From: a virus
Taxonomy: Duplodnaviria > Heunggongvirae > Uroviricota > Caudoviricetes
Reading direction: 5' to 3' (one strand)
Virus record (IMG/VR): IMGVR_UViG_2778261530_000005
Length of the DNA: 44,441 nucleotides
This document shows, in pieces, positions 2,603 to 38,097 of the stretch; position 1 is the stretch's first letter, and the number at the start of each line of letters is the position of its first letter. The notes under the pieces are model-generated. The model made no database searches, had not been told where the DNA came from, and was given only the letters and a program-made list of their open reading frames with translations. The position numbers and the translations under genes are program-made.

Positions 2603-3706
2603 TCAGGAGCCGATATATTCTGGTTTCATATCTGTCAGTGTCGTTTTATACGCCTCATATAATTCACCCAGATGTGGTCGTGCAGCATTCAGCGTATTTT
2701 CCAGAGCAGTAAATTTTTGTTCTGCTTCTGGATCACCTGATGAAGGCAGGTCATTTATCATCTTCTCGATACTGGCAATAGCATTGAGACGGTGATGACG
2801 CCGAACCACTTTTCCTTTAAGCTCGGCAAAGAATTCGCCGATCTGGTTTTTCTGATCCTCTATCTCTTGGCGTAATGCAGTGGTTTCCTCAGTCGTGGCC
2901 GCGCTTTCTATACGCTGCCGGAATTCATCAATCCACGCTTCGTCAATACGCTGTTCGATGGTTTCTGTTCGCTGCTCGCTTACCTCGCTATAATTCTGTA
3001 CCGACACAGGATTGATGATTTTTTCCTGTGGCTCTTCCAGTTCGTCCGGGGTATACACGCCCAGGATGACGTCAGGACAATAAAGGCGAGCCCAGTATTT
3101 CAACGCCAGATAGGCGAGCTGTTGTTTCGGGTTTGAGGTCCATAAAGGAGAATTACGCGTAATCACGCTGGAAAGAAACACCGGTTCTCCCCAGGTAATC
3201 TCACTTTCACCGCGAAGAACTGCACCAACTCGAACTGAGAGACCATACTCATCTTCACTGGTCCAACATGGGATCGTTTCTTTTTTCTCATAGATTCCGC
3301 CTCCTTTGGCCGTTTTCTTAACGATCTCCACTCGGGTGCGAGAGCATTTCTCCCAGTCTCCCTCGTACTTGTAATGGAAGCGACCTACAATTGCACTTGA
3401 GCTAGAGATCACAGCGTTAACCAGTTGTGCTTCATAACCCAGAACTCCGTTTACCAGGTGTGTTTTCTGAGCCACAGCGTAGGGGTTCATGCCCCATTGC
3501 ATAGCTTGCATGATGATTGCCATGCAGTCGGCAGGATTTCCGCGAAGGTGATCGGGAACTGTGACGGTGGCCTGTGCCATCAACCCGGCTACTGCCTGAA
3601 GTTGCGTCAACGCCTGAACGTTAAAAATAGTGTTACTGGCAGAAATGGTATTTGGTGTCTGCTCTGTCGTGATGATATTGGTATTTTGCATGGTCAGGTT
3701 CTCCAT
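2603..3706 (-). CDS. Single-strand annealing recombinase, RecT/Redbeta superfamily (putative)
   Basis: 367 aa directly downstream of the RecE-like exonuclease, start ATG overlapping its stop (TAATG); RecT/Redbeta-like core; alternative start at 3691. Confidence 0.6.
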   Translation of the reverse strand: MENLTMQNTNIITTEQTPNTISASNTIFNVQALTQLQAVAGLMAQATVTVPDHLRGNPADCMAIIMQAMQWGMNPYAVAQKTHLVNGVLGYEAQLVNAVISSSSAIVGRFHYKYEGDWEKCSRTRVEIVKKTAKGGGIYEKKETIPCWTSEDEYGLSVRVGAVLRGESEITWGEPVFLSSVITRNSPLWTSNPKQQLAYLALKYWARLYCPDVILGVYTPDELEEPQEKIINPVSVQNYSEVSEQRTETIEQRIDEAWIDEFRQRIESAATTEETTALRQEIEDQKNQIGEFFAELKGKVVRRHHRLNAIASIEKMINDLPSSGDPEAEQKFTALENTLNAARPHLGELYEAYKTTLTDMKPEYIGS

Positions 3707-6700
3707 TAAGCCAGATGCAGTGCTTCAAGACGACGAAGATCAAAGTCGTTTAATTCGTCGGTATAACTTTCGGTAATCGGTGCTGGCCAGTTGTTTGTCT
3801 CTAGAGCTTCGTTTATCTGGCGTAGCGTCCGGCGATATTCCTGTCGACCAAGTTCAAGGAGTTCCTGCGAGGCTTCCACGACTGCCACCCAGTGATAGCC
3901 AGCATCTTTGTTGACGAAGATCCAGAAAAATTTGTCCAGGTTTGCCACATCGCAATACATTGCGGCGCTGAGGTGATAATCACGCTCAATAATTTCACGG
4001 TGCAGGCGATCTTTAAGTCGTTCCTGCCGCACATAACCGAGGCTGACTGACTTCACGTCAGCGCAAATGCTTTCGTATGGCAGCCGGATTTCGATATCAG
4101 GACGGACCCTGATTTCCAGCCCGGTTTCTTCATCAAACCCGAAATAGCTGATTTCAGATTTGCGATCCGGGTGGTTGAGTAGCCTTGCTGCATCGGTATT
4201 GTTTTGCAGTGCCGCGTGAATATTTTTTGCCTGTTCATACATATCCGGACTGATAAACGTTTTCCCGGCGTTTTCTTCTTGCTGGCGTTTTTGCCAGTCC
4301 TCCAGTGTCACCAGTTCCGGGCGAATTTTCCGTGCGATTTCGGTTAATTGCTCTTTTGTGCCACTGATGTTGTAAGGCAAAGATTTAGCACGTTCTTTTT
4401 TTGCCAGTTCTGGATCTACAGTTTCAATTTGATCCAGAAGCTGCTCCCGTGCTCCACTGGTTTTCAACAGAGGAGGGAGGCTTGCGTTGTATTCTTTAAT
4501 ACAGGCTTTCATTGCTGATGCTGTGTGTTTTTCCCCCTCAGGAATACGCCGAAATTCCACCGGAAGCGAACCGTAAAGGATGCCTGTTTCTTCGGCCCCA
4601 GCACTTACAGACAGTGGCTGTATAAGAGTGCTGTTGTAGCTTTCGATCCACTCTTTCATCTGCTCTGGTGTCATCAGTGCTGGCAGACTGGCATTGTGTT
4701 TTTTAATGATGGCGATCAGTTCGTTAGAAGTAGTAACCACATATTCAGGAACCGGTACCGGAATGGCATATTCATCTGCGAATTTATCCGTTTCCAGAAC
4801 ATAGCTGTGAATGATCCGCCCACGCAGCAGTGCGTCACTTTCCTCGTTCGGAATAGTTCCGGCAATGTGCCGCCCGTGGTAATACATCAGGCTGATACGG
4901 GCATCCTTCAGCATCGTGCTGCTTATTCCGTTGGCGGAGTGATAAACCTCGTTCGGGAGGTTTTCATAGCGGCCTGGCTCGAAATATGACGGCCACATGA
5001 TTTCAGTTGCTACAGGAGCTGACGCTTCGCCAGTTTCATCACTGCAATTGCGATGCGGATCGCTGTCAGCATTCTCATTGTGCTGATGTTCAGCGCCTTC
5101 CATTTCCTCCGGATCTTTTTCCAGAGATTCATCCAGATTTTCTTCATTAAATGTTTCCTGATACGTTGCGTCGCCCATCGCCGCGCCACAATCAGGGCAG
5201 TTGCCCCCACCGATCTGACCGCAGGCGGTGCAGACTTTTTCCGGTTCTTGTTGCTCTTCTGGTTCAGGCTGTTTCGTTTCTGGCTCGTTTTGTTGCGTAT
5301 TTGGGCTGTTTTGTTCCGCTTTCTTGTCGTTCTGTTCCGTTTCTTGCTGGTTCTGGTTCACAGAGTCGAGGGTTTCAATCCCCTTAACCCATTTCGGATC
5401 GTTCGGGTCGCTAATCCCTTCAACAAATTCTCCGCGAGAGGCAGCCAGTAATTTGTCTGCATCGACAGGATTTTTGGGCGGAATGTTTTTCCGGGCTTCA
5501 TGGAGTTCTGCCCGCAGTTTCTGATATTTCGCATCAACAGAATTTACCTGTGACTGAGCATCCAGCGGCTGCGTGTTCTGATGATGTTCAGTTGCATTCG
5601 GTTCCACTGTTTCAGCCGTTGCCTGTTCATCTGCCATTGCGCCAGATGGTTGTGGTTTTTCTTCATCGTCCTGTTTTCCTTCTTCTGTTACTCGCTGCGG
5701 CATCGGGGCAGAGGAGCGACCGCAGGCAATATCCACGATTTCCGGATCAGGGTTGGCATGATCGGTTTCAGTCAGTACTTTGTTCAGATATTCAGTGACG
5801 TGTGCGGGGATGACCTCGATCCCAATTGGTGCTTCTTTCACGGACGCAACCACGATGGCGCGGGAATAATCCAGCCCGCCAGGCATGGTGATGAATTTGT
5901 CGCGGAAAACAGAAAAGGGTGGTTTATTTTCAGCGATAATTTCCTCAATGCGTTTAGCGTGTGCCGGATGAAGGTTATAAATGTCCACGTCCATTGAACG
6001 GGCCAGTACGCCAGTGGCTACATCGCGTGCCAGTGACGTCAGATCGTGGACGAAACCTTCGCCGCGATCGGTGAGGTTCCCGCCGCCAGCATTAGCACCG
6101 GAAGCCGTGCGAGTGATGCGTGAAACACGATTTCCTTTCATCCACTCTTTTGTCAGCAGACCGCGATCGGTGTAGTCTGCGTCCAGGTATGCTTCGAAAA
6201 AAGCAGTCATCAGCCCCAGACTTGAATTGCCTGGATTAGGGAAAACTTTGTCAGTATCACGAACCAGTCTGTGAAGATCGCGAATCTCCAGCGGGTCGAG
6301 CAGGCTGGTTTTGTGGGAAACAGCTAGGGCAGTAACAGCTGGTAGTTCTTCGGCCCGTGCAATATGTAATGTCTGGAGTTCGTCGCGTGAAACGTGCGTT
6401 ACCGGTTTTTCGCTGCCGTGTTGAGCAAGCCAGCGAATGGGCAGCTCTTGGCCAGAAATCGGGAGTAGCATATTCTCCTCAATCTCAGTCATGTCTTCGC
6501 CATTAACATTGGTATTGTCAGTGCTGTCTGGTTTGTCCTGCGCAGAGGATGAGGGCGCGATAAATACCATTGTGATGCCATCTTCCCCGCCTTTTTCGTA
6601 ACGGTTGCAGAATTCCGTATCAAATACGCCTTCTGGTGGAAGGTCATCAACAACGGGCAAATTGACGCGAACAGGTTTTTTAAAGTCATCTTCATCGTAG

Positions 6701-6855
6701 CCAGCATCGTCAATCGCAACAGCACCACGGGAGATGGCAATGGATAATTTTTTCGCTTCAGCCCAGTAGAAACCGCCTTTAATACCGAGACGTTTTCTTA
6801 CTTTGTCATTTTTTGCTTCGTAATACAGTGGGTAAACTTGTTTATCGGTGCTCAT
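3706..6855 (-). CDS. recE: Exodeoxyribonuclease VIII (RecE-like) with C-terminal PD-(D/E)xK nuclease domain
   Basis: 1049 aa; internal segments resemble my recollection of Rac RecE; C-terminal YqaJ/RecE-type nuclease region; translationally coupled to the annealase. Confidence 0.7.
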
Positions 6856-15579: not shown

Positions 15580-15600
15580 CCCGCTTCGGCGGGTTTTTTA
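15580..15600 (+). terminator. Rho-independent terminator at the 3' end of the hok transcript
   Basis: CCGCTTCGGCGG hairpin followed by TTTTTT. Confidence 0.55.
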
Positions 15601-16594: not shown

Positions 16595-16884
16595 TGGTGG
16601 ATTTACGTAAAGCGGCGCGGGGGCAGATGTGCACCGTCAGAATTCCTGGCTACTGCAATCACAATCCCGAAACTTCTGTGCTGGCGCATTACAGGCTGGC
16701 GGGGACGTGCGGAACAGCGACAAAACCACACGATATGCAGGCAGCGATTGCCTGTAGCTCATGCCACGATCTAATCGACGGGCGGGTAAAAACCAGCGAT
16801 TACACCAAAGAAGAATTACGCCTGATGCATGCAGAAGGTGTTTTTCGCACACAAGAAATCTGGAGAAAGGAAGGTTATTTATGA
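16594..16884 (+). CDS. YbcO-like Cys-rich putative nuclease (DUF1364-like)
   Basis: 96 aa with several conserved-looking Cys/His; nin-region position preceding Q. Confidence 0.5.
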   Translation: MVDLRKAARGQMCTVRIPGYCNHNPETSVLAHYRLAGTCGTATKPHDMQAAIACSSCHDLIDGRVKTSDYTKEELRLMHAEGVFRTQEIWRKEGYL

Positions 16885-17435
16885 TTTACCCAACAAATAC
16901 AGGCAAAAGCGGGGAACACCTTCGTCTCACCACGCTGGAAAGTGTCTGGATTCAGGGAAAACTGCGCATGTGGGGGCGCTGGTCGTATATTGGCGGCGGT
17001 AAGACGGGAAATATGTTCAACCAGTTGCTGACCTCTAAAAAGCTGACAAAAACGGCAATTAACGAGGCGCTCCGGAGGATGAAAAAAGCAGGTCTGGACA
17101 AACCTGAACTTGAGGCTTTTTTGCGGGATATGATCAACGGCAAGCAAAAAAGCTGGCTGGTGCATTGTACTGATGCAGAGGCGTTATGCATTGATCGGGT
17201 GATTAGTGAAGTGCTGGCAGAACACCCAGGATTGATTTGTATCCTCCGGCAACGATATGAAGGGAGGGGGATGACTAAGCGCAAAATGGCTGAATTGCTG
17301 AATGATTCACACCCTGAGTGGTGTTACGCCACGTGCCGTAATCGCATAGATGCGTGGTTGAAAATGGCAGAGTTTATGCTCTATCTGCCGATGCGTGATG
17401 CATTCTCTTCCGGGGATCTAAAAACCGTCTGTTGA
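16881..17435 (+). CDS. Late-gene antiterminator (Q-like)
   Basis: 184 aa from MIYPTNTGK…; immediately upstream of a near-consensus promoter and short terminated leader, upstream of the lysis cassette. Confidence 0.55.
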   Translation: MIYPTNTGKSGEHLRLTTLESVWIQGKLRMWGRWSYIGGGKTGNMFNQLLTSKKLTKTAINEALRRMKKAGLDKPELEAFLRDMINGKQKSWLVHCTDAEALCIDRVISEVLAEHPGLICILRQRYEGRGMTKRKMAELLNDSHPEWCYATCRNRIDAWLKMAEFMLYLPMRDAFSSGDLKTVC

Positions 17436-33194: not shown

Positions 33195-33371
33195 CGTTTA
33201 ACAGCCTGCCGGACGGGCTGTCCTACCTTCTCAATCCGGTTGACGCCGGGTTAATTCCTTATACAGCACTTAAAGATGGCTCTGTCGATTTGTACGACAT
33301 TGCTCTCTTGAATGACCATCTGGCGGTAAAAGCGGATAACCAGCGGCGCATTGAGAAATGGAGAGAGGATA

Positions 33372-35378
33372 ATGAACGCTGAAACTATTAAAGATTTCCT
33401 CGTCTCGCTTGGCTTCAGTGTGGATGATGCAGGAGCGAAAAAGTTCGGTTCTGTCCTCGCCGGTACAACTGCAAATGTCATCAAAATGGGGCTGGCTGTT
33501 GAAGGGGCTGCGCTGTCCGTGGTGGCCTTCACGGCTAAGATCGCCTCCGGTCTGGATAATCTTTACTGGGCGTCACAGCGCACCGGCGCGACGGTCCAGG
33601 GAATTCAGTCTATTGGCTATGCGGTTTCGCAGGTTGGCGGCAGTGTGGACGCTGCGCGATCTTCTCTGGAAAGCCTCTCCCGGTTTATTCGTAACAATCC
33701 CGGAGCAGAAGGCTTTCTGAATCGCCTGGGCGTACAGACCCGTGATGCCAGCGGTAACATGCGTGACATGGCTGCTATCTTTACGGGCGTTGGACAGAAA
33801 CTCAGCAGCATGCCGTATTACCGGGCTAACCAGTATGCGCAGATGCTGGGCATTGACGAAAATACCCTGATGGCTATGCGTCGCGGAGTGGGGCAGTTCA
33901 GCGCTCAGTATTCAGAAATGGTGAAAGCGATCGGATTTAATGCCGATCAGGCTGCCTTATCGTCAAACCGGTTTATGACCTCGCTGAAATCGCTCGGTGA
34001 AATGGCCGGGATGGCGCGGGACAAAATCGGATCGAATCTTGCGGACGGACTGGCGGGGCAGATTGATAACCTGCGCAAAAAGATAATTGAAAATTTTCCC
34101 AAAATTGAAGTCACCATCACAAAGGTCATAAAAGGGATCCTCTGGCTGGGTGAGATAGTCGGGCGGGTAGCATTTCGGATAGTCGATGGTGTCGGAGATA
34201 TCATCGAGTGGTGGGGGAAACTGGATGCCGAAACGAAAACCCTGATAGAGGTTATCGGCGGCCTGGTTGTCGCCATGCGGATACTTAACTCTACTTTCTG
34301 GATGTCACCTATAGGGCTGATTACTGGTCTGATCGTGGCTCTCGGTCTCTTGTGGGAAGACTACAAAACATGGAAAGAAGGCGGTAACAGCCTTATCGAC
34401 TGGGAAAAATGGCAACCGGCAATAGATAAAGCGAAGGATGCGATCACCTGGTTCCGCGACAAATTACTCGAGCTGAAAGACAGCGTGGGGGGATGGCAAA
34501 AATCATTGGAAATCCTCGGTACATTCATCGCGGGTGTCTGGATATCCAAGGTTCTGGGGGCTTTCGGAAAAATATCAGGTTTGCCGATCCCACCCTGGCT
34601 TAAATTGTGGGCGCTTTACGCGGGTTATATTGTTAGTGACAGAGAAAATATTGCCGATAGCGCAAAATCTTCACTGAGGTATACGAAGCGAATTATCGGC
34701 GACACGCTGGCTGCTATTGGTATAAAAACAGATATCGGACGCAGGGATGTCAGTGAGGTCCGTGAATGGCCTGCGTGGATGGACTGGTTGCACGGGGGAC
34801 CCGGTAAAGTTATCCGGCAGGGACAGAGTAACGGTGTAGTGCATGGCTCCAATGTCCAGCCCGACATCCCCGGCGGCGGCACTCTTGCTGATCGCAACAA
34901 TAACCCCGGGAACATTCGCCCGGTGAGCGGTAAAGGGTTCCGTTTTTTCGAATCAGCGCTTGAGGGCTGGGAGGCGATGAAAAACCAGCTCATGCGTTAC
35001 TTTACCGGGAAAACAACCGGACGGGCATTACAGACTATTCAGGATATTGTCAGTACCTGGGCCCCGGCAGGTGATAACAACGATCCGAAAAAGTATGCAC
35101 AGGATGTTGCGAAATGGATGGGAGTATCACCGAATGCAATATTGAATCTTACAGATCCCCGGACTATGGGAGCATTGATGCAGTCGATGGCGCGCAAAGA
35201 AGGTTATTCAAACTGGAACAGCCCGCTGGCGTATAAGGTCGCCGCTGGCAGCCTTAACCAGCAGACTGTTATAAATGTTCATGGAGTTAACAACCCTCAG
35301 GAGGCGGCTAATCTGATCGCTGACAAGCAGGGGGCTGTAAATGCCAGGGCGGTACAGCAATTGAAAGGACCTGCGTAA
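33372..35378 (+). CDS. Tail tape measure protein
   Basis: About 668 aa from MNAETIKDF…; largest tail gene after the chaperone; hydrophobic central segments. Confidence 0.75.
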   Translation: MNAETIKDFLVSLGFSVDDAGAKKFGSVLAGTTANVIKMGLAVEGAALSVVAFTAKIASGLDNLYWASQRTGATVQGIQSIGYAVSQVGGSVDAARSSLESLSRFIRNNPGAEGFLNRLGVQTRDASGNMRDMAAIFTGVGQKLSSMPYYRANQYAQMLGIDENTLMAMRRGVGQFSAQYSEMVKAIGFNADQAALSSNRFMTSLKSLGEMAGMARDKIGSNLADGLAGQIDNLRKKIIENFPKIEVTITKVIKGILWLGEIVGRVAFRIVDGVGDIIEWWGKLDAETKTLIEVIGGLVVAMRILNSTFWMSPIGLITGLIVALGLLWEDYKTWKEGGNSLIDWEKWQPAIDKAKDAITWFRDKLLELKDSVGGWQKSLEILGTFIAGVWISKVLGAFGKISGLPIPPWLKLWALYAGYIVSDRENIADSAKSSLRYTKRIIGDTLAAIGIKTDIGRRDVSEVREWPAWMDWLHGGPGKVIRQGQSNGVVHGSNVQPDIPGGGTLADRNNNPGNIRPVSGKGFRFFESALEGWEAMKNQLMRYFTGKTTGRALQTIQDIVSTWAPAGDNNDPKKYAQDVAKWMGVSPNAILNLTDPRTMGALMQSMARKEGYSNWNSPLAYKVAAGSLNQQTVINVHGVNNPQEAANLIADKQGAVNARAVQQLKGPA

Positions 35379-36336: not shown

Positions 36337-37377
36337 ATGTCGAAAAACTGGATGCGTCACTTTGAATTATTGCTTGTTGATGATAAGGGCGACGGGATAA
36401 AAATTTCTGAGCTTAAAGTCACTTTCAATATTCAGAAAATGCCTGCGACCATATTTAATGGATTTGTTGGAAATTTTAAGGTTTATAACCTGTCTCCTAC
36501 CACTCAGAACCGGATTATGCAGAAGGAGTTTTCGCGTATACAGGTTATTGCCGGATACAAGGGGCAACCGGATGCAGCAGGTAATTATCCTGATGAAAAC
36601 GTTGGTATGATATTCAATGGAGATATCCGTTTTACTGTCACTGGTAAAGATAATGCCACAGACAGTTGGATCATGTTGCAGTGTATTGACAGCTGGGAAG
36701 GCCACCTGAACGCAAGTGTGAAAACCACAGTGGCAGCTGGCTGGAAGTACAGCGATCTTTTCAGTCTGGGTATGAAATCATTCGAACCATATGGCATCGA
36801 ATCCGGAGCAGTTCCTGACATGCCTGAAACGGTATTTCCCCGAGGGCGCGTTGTTTATCAAAACACATCAAGGTTGATGAATCATATCGCAGGGCAGTGT
36901 AAAGCTAACTGGTGGTATGAAAATAATCTGGTAAATATTGTTCCTGAAGATAAATATATTGGTGTTGCTACGGTGTTGAATGCTAACACCGGGCTTATCG
37001 GTATGCCACAGCAGACGATGGGAGCTGGCGTAAATGTCAGATGCCTGATTAATCCAAATATTAAGCTCGGTGGGCTTATTCGTCTGGATCAGGCATCTGT
37101 ATACCGTGCCTCTTTGAGTAATGACCAGGTAGCGAAATCGCCAGCACGACTGGATGAGTCTGAAAGCGACGGTAATCTCTACGTTAACGGTCTGCCAGGC
37201 ATGTCACAGCCTGCCAGCATTAATACTGACGGTGATTACATTGTGGGCAGCATTGATTATACTGGCGACACCCGAGGGCAGGCGTGGTATATGGACCTGC
37301 TTTGCCTGGCTAAAGGGAGTAAAAGTTTACTCAATCCTGATACGATAGCGAAAATAAGTGGGGTACCAAATGCTTAA
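36337..37377 (+). CDS. Baseplate/tail protein, possibly hub
   Basis: 346-aa ORF in the baseplate cluster. Confidence 0.5.
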   Translation: MSKNWMRHFELLLVDDKGDGIKISELKVTFNIQKMPATIFNGFVGNFKVYNLSPTTQNRIMQKEFSRIQVIAGYKGQPDAAGNYPDENVGMIFNGDIRFTVTGKDNATDSWIMLQCIDSWEGHLNASVKTTVAAGWKYSDLFSLGMKSFEPYGIESGAVPDMPETVFPRGRVVYQNTSRLMNHIAGQCKANWWYENNLVNIVPEDKYIGVATVLNANTGLIGMPQQTMGAGVNVRCLINPNIKLGGLIRLDQASVYRASLSNDQVAKSPARLDESESDGNLYVNGLPGMSQPASINTDGDYIVGSIDYTGDTRGQAWYMDLLCLAKGSKSLLNPDTIAKISGVPNA

Positions 37378-37612
37378 ATGGATCTTATTACTGGTATATT
37401 TTGTGACTTTGTCTTCTATGGCTGCAGTAACATGCACCACTTCAAATACAGGAACAACTTACTGTGCTGGTACAGACAGTAGTGGTTCTACAGTTAGAAC
37501 AGAATCTTATACAACCAATACAGGCACTACGTATACCACAGGAACGATTAATGGGAATGCAGTACATCGTGAATGCCAGACGACCAATACTGGCACAACG
37601 TACTGTAATTAA
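37370..37612 (+). CDS. Small secreted Thr-rich repeat protein (moron inside baseplate module)
   Basis: 80 aa from MLKWILLLVYFVTLSSMAAV… (signal peptide), then three repeats of T-[ST]-N-T-G-T-T-Y and four Cys; AT-rich; ATG overlaps the preceding stop. Confidence 0.45.
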   Translation: MLKWILLLVYFVTLSSMAAVTCTTSNTGTTYCAGTDSSGSTVRTESYTTNTGTTYTTGTINGNAVHRECQTTNTGTTYCN

Positions 37613-37647
37613 TTTTTTTAAGAAATCAGCTATAGGAGACATTTGTA

Positions 37648-37989
37648 ATGAAGAAAATATTCCTTCTCGCAGTGTTGACTCCAACAATTTGTGTAGGTGG
37701 AACGCTGAATGATTTTTTTGGGCTGCACACCTCACTGGCTGATAACTACATCATCAAGAGAGAGATCACAAATAGGGCTGTTTCTAATGCGGCTATGGAC
37801 GCTGTATCTAATGGTCGTGAGGCGGATTTTGGTGATGAGTTAATGAAAGAACATGGTGATAGTTATGGTGAAATAGCTCTGCGTCAACTCGCTTCCGAGT
37901 GCGGTTATTCTTTTTCCGATAGCGGCCAATCTCTTACGACTCTAAAAAAAGAAGAATGTAGATTGGTGCTATCTGAAAATAAGCAATGA
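37648..37989 (+). CDS. Secreted protein with signal peptide (moron inside baseplate module)
   Basis: 113 aa, MKKIFLLAVLTPTICVGG… signal sequence, AGGAGA ribosome-binding site; AT-rich; followed by a strong terminator. Confidence 0.5.
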   Translation: MKKIFLLAVLTPTICVGGTLNDFFGLHTSLADNYIIKREITNRAVSNAAMDAVSNGREADFGDELMKEHGDSYGEIALRQLASECGYSFSDSGQSLTTLKKEECRLVLSENKQ

Positions 37990-38053
37990 GTTCGCTAAAT
38001 TAACTTTCCACGGTAATTGCTTCTATCGCCATGGAAAGAAAACTAGCTACATA

Positions 38054-38079
38054 AAACCCGCCACCCGGCGGGTTTTTTA
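38054..38079 (+). terminator. Rho-independent terminator after the tail moron
   Basis: AAAACCCGCC-ACCC-GGCGGGTTTTTT hairpin and T-run. Confidence 0.6.
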
Positions 38080-38097
38080 CTTGCTGGAGACATATGA

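Follow-up and report, generated by a model that had tools for sequence, protein, structure and literature searches.

We analyzed a 44,441-nucleotide (nt) stretch of Caudoviricetes DNA (IMG/VR virus record IMGVR_UViG_2778261530_000005, hereafter the window) with a focus on two small open reading frames (ORFs), here called ORF1 and ORF2, that lie between the genes for the baseplate hub and the baseplate spike. Comparison with related loci showed that the segment from about 37317 to 38054 fills a hotspot for morons or accessory genes between the hub and spike genes of SEN34-like lambdoid myovirus prophages of Enterobacterales. As judged from these alignments, the slot has a fixed layout, with a left edge in the 3′ end of the hub gene, an exported protein at the first position, exchangeable cargo behind it, and a terminator about 20 nt before the spike start. 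We propose, with a probability of about one half, that the segment is a moron unit with a promoter buried in the hub gene, and that ORF1 and ORF2 are made in the lysogen, exported, and hinder the entry of other phages. An original prediction, made from this sequence alone, had placed two small ORFs and a strong terminator between the hub gene (ending at 37377) and the spike gene (starting at 38098), and this arrangement was found as described. The features of the region, and one gene from elsewhere in the window, are the following:

36337–37377, + strand: baseplate hub gene, left flank of the slot, with matches to PF22759 E217_GP41 and phrog_196 'baseplate hub'
37235–37263, + strand: promoter-like site from a consensus scan, with −35 ATTACA (37235–37240), a 17-nt spacer, and −10 TATACT (37258–37263)
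37370–37612, + strand: ORF1, 80 amino acids (aa), whose ATG at 37370 overlaps the hub stop codon (ATGCTTAA)
37634–37638, + strand: Shine-Dalgarno sequence AGGAG of ORF2, read from the sequence, 9 nt before the ATG
37648–37989, + strand: ORF2, 113 aa, with a predicted Sec signal peptide and a helical mature domain
38004–38038, + strand: imperfect hairpin in the ORF2–spike spacer, upstream of the terminator (fold of 37985–38100, −35 kcal/mol, z = −4.0)
38053–38078, + strand: intrinsic terminator AAAA-CCCGCC-ACCC-GGCGGG-TTTTTT (AAAACCCGCC-ACCC-GGCGGGTTTTTT), about 20 nt before the spike start
38098–38850, + strand: baseplate spike gene, right flank of the slot, with PF18352 plus the GpV Apex motif and Shine-Dalgarno sequence GGAG at 38086–38089
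16761–17435, elsewhere in the window: Q-type antiterminator gene

The Hub–Spike Slot and Its Cargo

For the census of this position, 61 loci from other species were fetched with a profile of the hub protein, and the ORFs in the slot were called. The slot was present in 58 of these loci and absent in three distant ones. Position 1, right after the hub stop codon, was occupied by a gene for a signal-peptide or transmembrane (TM) protein in 55 of the 58; the usual occupant, a family of 110–120 aa (phrog_3443), was found in 48 loci and the ORF1 family in 4. We considered whether ORF1 is a diverged form of the usual family and rejected this, as hhalign aligned just the signal peptide and the first cysteine. 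With only the leader in common, ORF1 is therefore, at the sequence level, a non-homologous replacement at a conserved position and no insertion. From position 2 onward, 42 cargo families were counted, the ORF2 family recurring among them, and a comparison found no relationship between ORF2 and the usual position-1 family either. The original prediction had described a single two-gene insertion, a view that did not survive: the first position is filled in nearly all relatives, and ORF2 is one of many alternative cargos. Those that could be named included PD-lambda-1 (E = 2.8e-82), Phd plus Fic/Doc, a YafO toxin pair, and a secreted OB-fold protein. PD-lambda-1, now named SNIPE, is a nuclease of the membrane that cleaves phage DNA as it is injected (PMC13190303). 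According to a crude heuristic, a signal peptide or TM segment was present in 33 of 75 cargo ORFs, as against 5 of 36 other genes of the window. In eight census loci, the position-1 gene stood alone.

Within Escherichia coli, the hub–spike region was detected in 291 of 5,426 complete genomes, and the ORF1–ORF2 cassette in only 7. Prophages of this species with 97–98% identical hub and spike genes differed in slot content, and both ORFs were absent from such near-identical tails. This comparison, which had been suggested together with the original prediction, upheld its view of the segment as non-structural accessory DNA present or absent between the same two genes. One alternative content was a secreted protein of 111 aa with a DUF4282 membrane protein behind it; another was a TPR-like protein with a partner of ~130 aa, and a third was a reverse-strand gene. 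Homology among the E. coli variants ended within the 3′ end of the hub gene, at about 37316, and resumed at the hairpin; therefore, the last ~20 hub codons move along with the cargo. The spike gene was 98% identical among variants with differing cargo. The G+C content was 38–44% over 37300–38099, compared with about 48–55% in the flanks, and the AT-rich character ascribed to the segment was thereby confirmed. The differences found within E. coli (nonsynonymous/synonymous) were 5/2 for ORF1, 3/2 for ORF2, and 4/25 for the spike gene; though small, the counts for the two ORFs fit fast-evolving accessory proteins.

Several further observations concerned the slot. A third secreted family (121–136 aa, motif WGxNGGMH...LDADNxPR) accompanied the ORF1 and ORF2 families, in varied gene order, in loci of Trabulsiella (L008), Pluralibacter (L082), and Cronobacter (L070). 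ORF2-family genes were more frequent in ORF1-family loci than in those with the usual position-1 gene, in a sample that is biased. The annotated start of the usual position-1 protein appeared to lie too far downstream in SEN34 (locus L075, SEN34_20) and Serratia (L081), with loss of the signal peptide, and the 79-aa gene that precedes the Serratia homologue of ORF2, tried as an ORF1 relative, proved to be such a start-truncated call. Another recurrent cargo was a two-gene set of a ~250-aa TPR/HAT-like protein and a ~130-aa partner (phrog_5176), found at 3003–4185 of L004, at 2957–4128 of L002, and in five other loci; neither PADLOC nor Pfam assigned it to anything known, and it may represent an uncharacterized defence or toxin–antitoxin (TA) pair. 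In Burkholderia phage BgManors32 (L077), whose hub is 32% identical, a reverse-strand gene of 152 aa (3993–4451, − strand) lay between hub and spike with no hairpin, and this position may be insertion-prone outside Enterobacterales too.

The Slot Terminator and a Candidate Promoter in the Hub Gene

The hairpin at 38053–38078 gave a fold of −23.5 kcal/mol (z = −5.4), and none of 200 shuffled sequences was as stable. It has a GC-rich stem-loop and a U-run, with the pairing kept across relatives, as in Rho-independent terminators. A consensus terminator scan did not flag it, probably owing to A/T pairs that lengthen the stem into the T-run. A stem of the same type (ACCCGC/GCGGGT) with a T-run was found in 51 of the 58 loci whatever the cargo, 5–29 nt (mostly 15–24 nt) before the spike start. 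The terminator was likewise present in loci of SEN34, Klebsiella, Cronobacter, Serratia, and Pluralibacter. The loops varied, and the fully paired stems included GGTCGCC/GGCGGCC, AGCCGC/GCGGCT, CCCACC/GGTGGG, and ACCCCG/CGGGGT. The strong intrinsic terminator that had been predicted is thus there, but it is not the two genes' own, as the same hairpin closes the slot over other cargo. Six of the seven hairpin-less loci had a minimal, cargo-free slot. The terminator had also been regarded as being at odds with a continuous late operon. This is no paradox because the prophage encodes a Q-type antiterminator and, by analogy with lambda biology, late transcription would run past the hairpin through Q.

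A role of the hairpin as a special recombination site was considered and discarded. The motif CCCGC-loop-GCGGGTTT occurs twice more on the + strand of the window, at 15580–15596 and 18415–18433 (0.01 expected by chance), and the hairpin is hence of a generic strong terminator type. One of the two extra copies lies in the nin region, and the other just past an anti-repressor-like gene downstream of Q. An Rfam search of 37200–38300 returned only sub-threshold leader- or terminator-like matches. About 45 nt of the ORF2–spike spacer were common to one other E. coli variant (strain A41).

A search for a promoter in 37300–37370 had been suggested; a promoter-like site does exist, but further upstream, at 37235–37263. 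It is a candidate slot promoter, from which transcription would start near 37270. Its −10 hexamer overlies two codons, Tyr-Thr, that belong to a motif invariant in the hub. When the loci were compared, the hexamer TA(T/C)A(C/A)T, with A2 and T6, was present in 48 of 50 hairpin-bearing loci, as opposed to none of nine hairpin-less or slot-less loci. The Thr codon that provides T6 was ACT in 34 of 36 unique hairpin-bearing sequences, while the Thr three codons on and other four-fold sites varied freely. Hairpin-less loci that retain this Thr never used ACT, and further loci were consistent. The six minimal, cargo-free loci lacked both the hairpin and the −10 hexamer. This pattern points to selection at the nucleotide level, as would be consistent with a −10 element, and suggests that promoter, cargo, and terminator form a single unit.

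ORF1 and ORF2 Encode Predicted Exported Proteins

The signal peptide, the three repeats, and the four cysteines attributed to ORF1 were all seen. Its N-terminus, MLKWILLLVYFVTLSSMA followed by A, contains a Lys, a 15-residue hydrophobic core, and an S-M-A cleavage site that aligns with A-x-A in all homologues. The mature part of ~62 aa after this Sec signal peptide is made of three β-hairpin repeats, with the motifs TSNTGTTY, TTNTGTTY, and TTNTGTTY, and the cysteines C22, C32, C69, and C79 are invariant among homologues. The latter have 79–81 aa and about 55% identity, keep the repeat register, and were found directly after the hub also in Yokenella, Trabulsiella, Hafnia, Cronobacter, and Pluralibacter. 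The AlphaFold2 model showed a six-stranded antiparallel meander of three hairpins (predicted local distance difference test score, pLDDT, 77); from the strand register, C22/C32 would staple hairpin 1, and C69/C79 hairpin 3.

The Prokaryotic Genome Annotation Pipeline (PGAP) calls no coding sequence at 37370–37612 in the genomes that are identical to the window in this region, and the Shine-Dalgarno sequence is weak (GGGG, 6 nt upstream). Because homologues with the same length, cysteines, repeat register, and position after the hub exist, the comparison indicates that ORF1 is a genuine gene overlooked by annotation pipelines. Members of this family were skipped in E. coli (L001, L084) and in Pluralibacter gergoviae (L082), and in the latter a 228-nt 'intergenic gap' at about 2850–3090 codes for a full 80-aa member. 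In the E. coli FDAARGOS_943 locus (L085), two IS1 copies break the cassette at the equivalents of ~37354 and ~37588–37596; one replaces the hub 3′ region and the other lies within the ORF1 3′ end.

A profile search added some 30 further secreted proteins of similar plan, 68–128 aa long (mostly 77–90 aa), and by sequence ORF1 belongs to a wider family of ~80-aa secreted triple-hairpin proteins. In an alignment of window positions 37370–37609 with proteins P0013–P0060, the three 9-residue hairpin cores were 67% identical within each protein and 32% between proteins, which looks like concerted evolution or a symmetry constraint. Examples of such internal likeness are STDSWGTTR and YTDALGTTR, each present three times in its protein. 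Some distant members were encoded outside phage tails, beside conjugative type IV secretion system (T4SS) genes or among runs of small ORFs. Large RCC1-type proteins were rejected as relatives, as they share the hairpin motif C..T..G..YC.G.D..G only; they form a seven-bladed propeller from ~50-aa repeats, unlike the three hairpins in 80 aa of ORF1.

ORF2 has the MKK-hydrophobic N-terminus and the three cysteines that had been reported for it. The predicted cleavage site, after C-V-G and before G, aligned with A-x-A of the homologues, and C85 and C104 are invariant in the family. The third cysteine lies in the signal peptide, in T-P-T-I-C, with Ile at −1, and is absent from the homologues. Residues 1–113 matched positions 1–116 of the 116 in phrog_13007 (E = 1.9e-38), a family of unknown function. 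A profile search retrieved 58 clusters, and all the named ones were from Enterobacterales and labelled hypothetical. In every context checked, ORF2-family genes lay in the hub–spike slot. The AlphaFold2 model was a helical hairpin (pLDDT 70), for which Foldseek found no significant match in PDB or BFVD (best PDB E = 0.85).

Searches with ORF1, ORF2, and the usual position-1 protein gave nothing in Pfam, NCBIfam, and PADLOC, and only families of unknown function in PHROGs. None of the defence models of PADLOC-DB 2.0 matched them, and PD-lambda-1, used as a same-slot control, was found. Similarly, no counterpart of ORF1 or ORF2 was detected by tblastn among 50,697 deposited phage records, searches of PDB sequences with profiles returned nothing relevant, and in these searches neither protein resembled any known fold or matched a family of known function. 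The first statement on these proteins, that they match nothing recognizable, was accordingly right for fold and function, but not for ORF2 as regards membership of a family. The homology and structure search proposed for the repeat protein led to its wider secreted family, and to no known fold or family. No tail family of Pfam or PHROGs was matched by ORF1 or ORF2, no virion proteomics was found in a SEN34 paper, and the export signals argue against a virion role.

The Prophage and Its Flanking Genes

The window comprises a complete lambdoid prophage, and its tail is of the contractile type. Besides the genes listed above, the prophage encodes an integrase, RecE/RecT, a CI-like repressor, a CII-like activator, NinB, a holin, an endolysin, and a tail sheath. 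The tail module belongs to a type that was first found in Salmonella phage SEN34 (Brunovirus), which combines a lambda-like genome with myovirus morphology (PMC5261728). The region 36337–38850 was 100% identical to prophages of E. coli BCE049 and MFDS1022581, and the carrier strains came from animals, food, and humans. The tape-measure gene (33351–35378, + strand) has the RefSeq label 'lytic transglycosylase catalytic', and its relatives match PF01464 SLT; with Pfam, the window's own copy gave merely a weak minor-tail match. A transglycosylase domain in this protein is a possible periplasmic target for exclusion proteins. At 2603–6855 (− strand), RecT (367 aa) and a RecE-like exonuclease VIII (1049 aa) adjoin the integrase, as in an ordinary Rac-type recombination module.

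Discussion

In the mechanism that we propose for the slot as a moron unit, a sigma-70 −10 element in the hub Tyr-Thr codons (37258–37263) would start a transcript over ORF1 and ORF2 in the lysogen, and this would stop at the hairpin, leaving the downstream tail genes silent. During lytic growth, Q-modified polymerase would pass the hairpin, and ORF1 and ORF2 would also be made late. Both proteins would be exported to the periplasm, oxidized to disulfide-bonded forms, and act on the envelope, with superinfection exclusion at or after adsorption as the result. Phage exclusion at the envelope appears to be the most likely function. We favour it because of the predicted export, the envelope-biased slot, the presence of SNIPE among the sister cargo, and the precedent of HK97 gp15 (PMC3594210).

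Morons, in the sense of Juhala and Hendrix, are extra DNA of deviant G+C content with their own promoter and terminator and expression from the prophage (PMC3594210). The segment is extra DNA, as near-identical E. coli prophages differ in it and distant relatives are slotless, and its G+C content departs from that of the flanks. The terminator is provided by the hairpin and its T6 tract, though this is common to most loci, and the promoter would be ATTACA-17-TATACT within the hub gene, with a weak −35 and no enrichment over shuffled sequences. HK97 gp15 is described as a GC-deviant moron in a lambdoid tail operon, which the prophage expresses and whose envelope-located product prevents injection of the genome (Juhala et al. 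2000; Cumby et al. 2012; PMC3594210). The slot resembles it in being extra, GC-deviant DNA with small genes and promoter/terminator elements within such an operon, the promoter here being a candidate. It differs in other respects: gp15 is a single YebO-like inner-membrane protein encoded between the chaperone and tape-measure genes, whereas here the genes lie between hub and spike and encode two soluble-looking proteins, predicted to be Sec-exported and with no sequence similarity to gp15, and a whole family of alternative cargos has the terminator and candidate promoter in common.

There is likeness, too, to the defence hotspots described for P2 and P4 among temperate phages and satellites (Rousset et al. 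2022, cited in PMC11364771; PMC13586616), where unrelated cargo, including defence and TA genes, is swapped among close relatives at a fixed site between conserved phage genes. Unlike these, the present slot belongs to a SEN34-like lineage with a Brunovirus-type tail and lies between hub and spike; its first position nearly always holds a small secreted protein, and nearly half of its cargo ORFs look envelope-targeted. The Tab/anti-Tab genes of Pseudomonas phage JBD26 are similar in occupying a late-operon slot with one gene packed on a structural gene and a second with an accessory function (PMC10884400). Tab is, however, cytoplasmic and encoded between the terminase genes, on the opposite strand and with its own promoter (PMC10884400), and the position-1 gene of our slot occurs alone or with dozens of partners and so is no cognate antidote.

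Small exported phage proteins encoded near tail genes are also represented by Cor (phi80, N15, HK022) and T5 Llp, which block reinfection. The parallel with Cor-type lipoproteins drawn in the original prediction failed: the lipobox (L/V/I)(A/S/T/V/I)(G/A/S)C is in neither ORF, the T-P-T-I-C of ORF2 is unconserved, and ORF1 has S-M-A followed by A. Spackle (gp61.3) of T4 acts in the periplasm, where it excludes superinfecting phages by inhibiting the lysozyme of the tail tip; it is a small signal-peptide protein with a disulfide, and its gene is an early gene of a virulent phage, outside the tail operon. Given that the tape-measure protein is annotated with a lytic transglycosylase domain, Spackle offers a plausible functional analogy. 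A Spackle-like fold or sequence was rejected, as the structural search with the ORF2 model and the PDB-sequence profiles gave no relevant match. Full-text literature searches found no prior description of a hub–spike hotspot. The finding is a further moron or accessory hotspot in a tail operon, of a known kind, at a newly mapped slot.

Several results weigh against expression in the lysogen and against exclusion as the function. The −35 matches only 3–4 of 6 consensus positions, and shuffled sequences contain more promoter-like sites than the region does. The hairpin-less loci have a common hub variant, VRYI, and the correlation between promoter and hairpin may reflect one or two evolutionary events. 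Position-1 genes abut the hub gene, overlapping it or starting within ~20 nt, and ORF2-family genes usually follow their upstream neighbour closely, with anything from an overlap to a gap of about 40 nt; both arrangements would also be compatible with purely late expression. Promoter-like site and hairpin are both missing from the six minimal loci; the usual position-1 gene would therefore be expressed only late there, and a role in the lytic cycle is indicated for that position. Searches of families, PDB, BFVD, and PADLOC found no homology or fold link from ORF1 or ORF2 to any exclusion protein. Finally, the signal peptides were called by eye and with a crude heuristic, not with a trained predictor.

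The main rival, possible but clearly less probable, is that ORF1 and ORF2 serve the phage's own lytic cycle as accessory proteins made only late, periplasmic in the producing cell and of no benefit to the lysogen. Possible roles would then be a guard against lysis from without or late superinfection, or the tuning of lysis and release. The tight packing against the hub of a position that is filled in almost all relatives, the close spacing of ORF2-family genes, the minimal loci in which the usual gene stands alone with neither hairpin nor −10-like site, and the lack of an evident strong sigma-70 promoter would all fit this explanation. It is hard to reconcile, however, with a strong terminator retained wherever cargo occurs, which is difficult to explain without transcription in the prophage state, and with synonymous conservation of the −10-like hexamer that follows the hairpin. 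Moreover, genes of the kinds found as sister cargo (TA pairs, SNIPE, reverse-strand genes) are typically expressed by prophages, and the near-identical tails that lack ORF1 and ORF2 show that they are dispensable for the tail.

We consider it unlikely that the two genes are host-fitness or virulence morons similar to lambda Lom and Bor, with effects on the envelope, stress tolerance, or host interaction. The moron architecture and export signals would fit equally, Lom and SopE are given as moron precedents (PMC3594210), the carriers come from animals, food, and humans, and some distant ORF1-family members have conjugative T4SS genes as neighbours or belong to series of small ORFs. Nonetheless, neither protein is like a known virulence or envelope-stress family, the ORF2 family keeps to the hub–spike slot in all contexts checked, the cassette is rare among E. 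coli genomes, and the recognizable slot neighbours are defence or TA genes and not virulence factors. That ORF1 is a chance open frame in a spacer, with ORF2 as the sole real cargo, is highly improbable: the missing calls here and in Pluralibacter, the weak Shine-Dalgarno sequence, and the 5 nonsynonymous and 2 synonymous differences within E. coli could be cited for it, but homologues in six genera keep its length, four cysteines, repeat register, and position, a profile search adds proteins of similar architecture, and the β-meander is modelled with confidence.

Returning to the moron unit with entry-blocking products, a bolder extension, which we regard as doubtful at present, is that the slot is a dedicated store of envelope defences acting at genome delivery. 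The position-1 and ORF2 families would then be new periplasmic entry blockers produced from a hub-embedded promoter, and the ORF1 family, with hairpins alike within a protein but different between proteins, would be a small binding scaffold that can be retargeted rapidly; a tail tip or a porin, as a trimeric structure, might be the target.

If the proposed reading is correct, the slot would be an undescribed accessory or defence hotspot with clean boundaries, i.e., the hub 3′ end, the −10 element, and the terminator, and these could serve to find new cargo, with candidate entry-stage defences among it, in a tail type that about 5% of complete E. coli genomes carry and that is found across Enterobacterales. 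It would also bring to light two unstudied families of exported proteins, one of them systematically unannotated and with unusual triple-hairpin repeats, and provide a case of a promoter held by selection on a synonymous site in an essential structural gene. Current ideas are not overturned by this; the picture of morons and hotspots is widened to another phage lineage.

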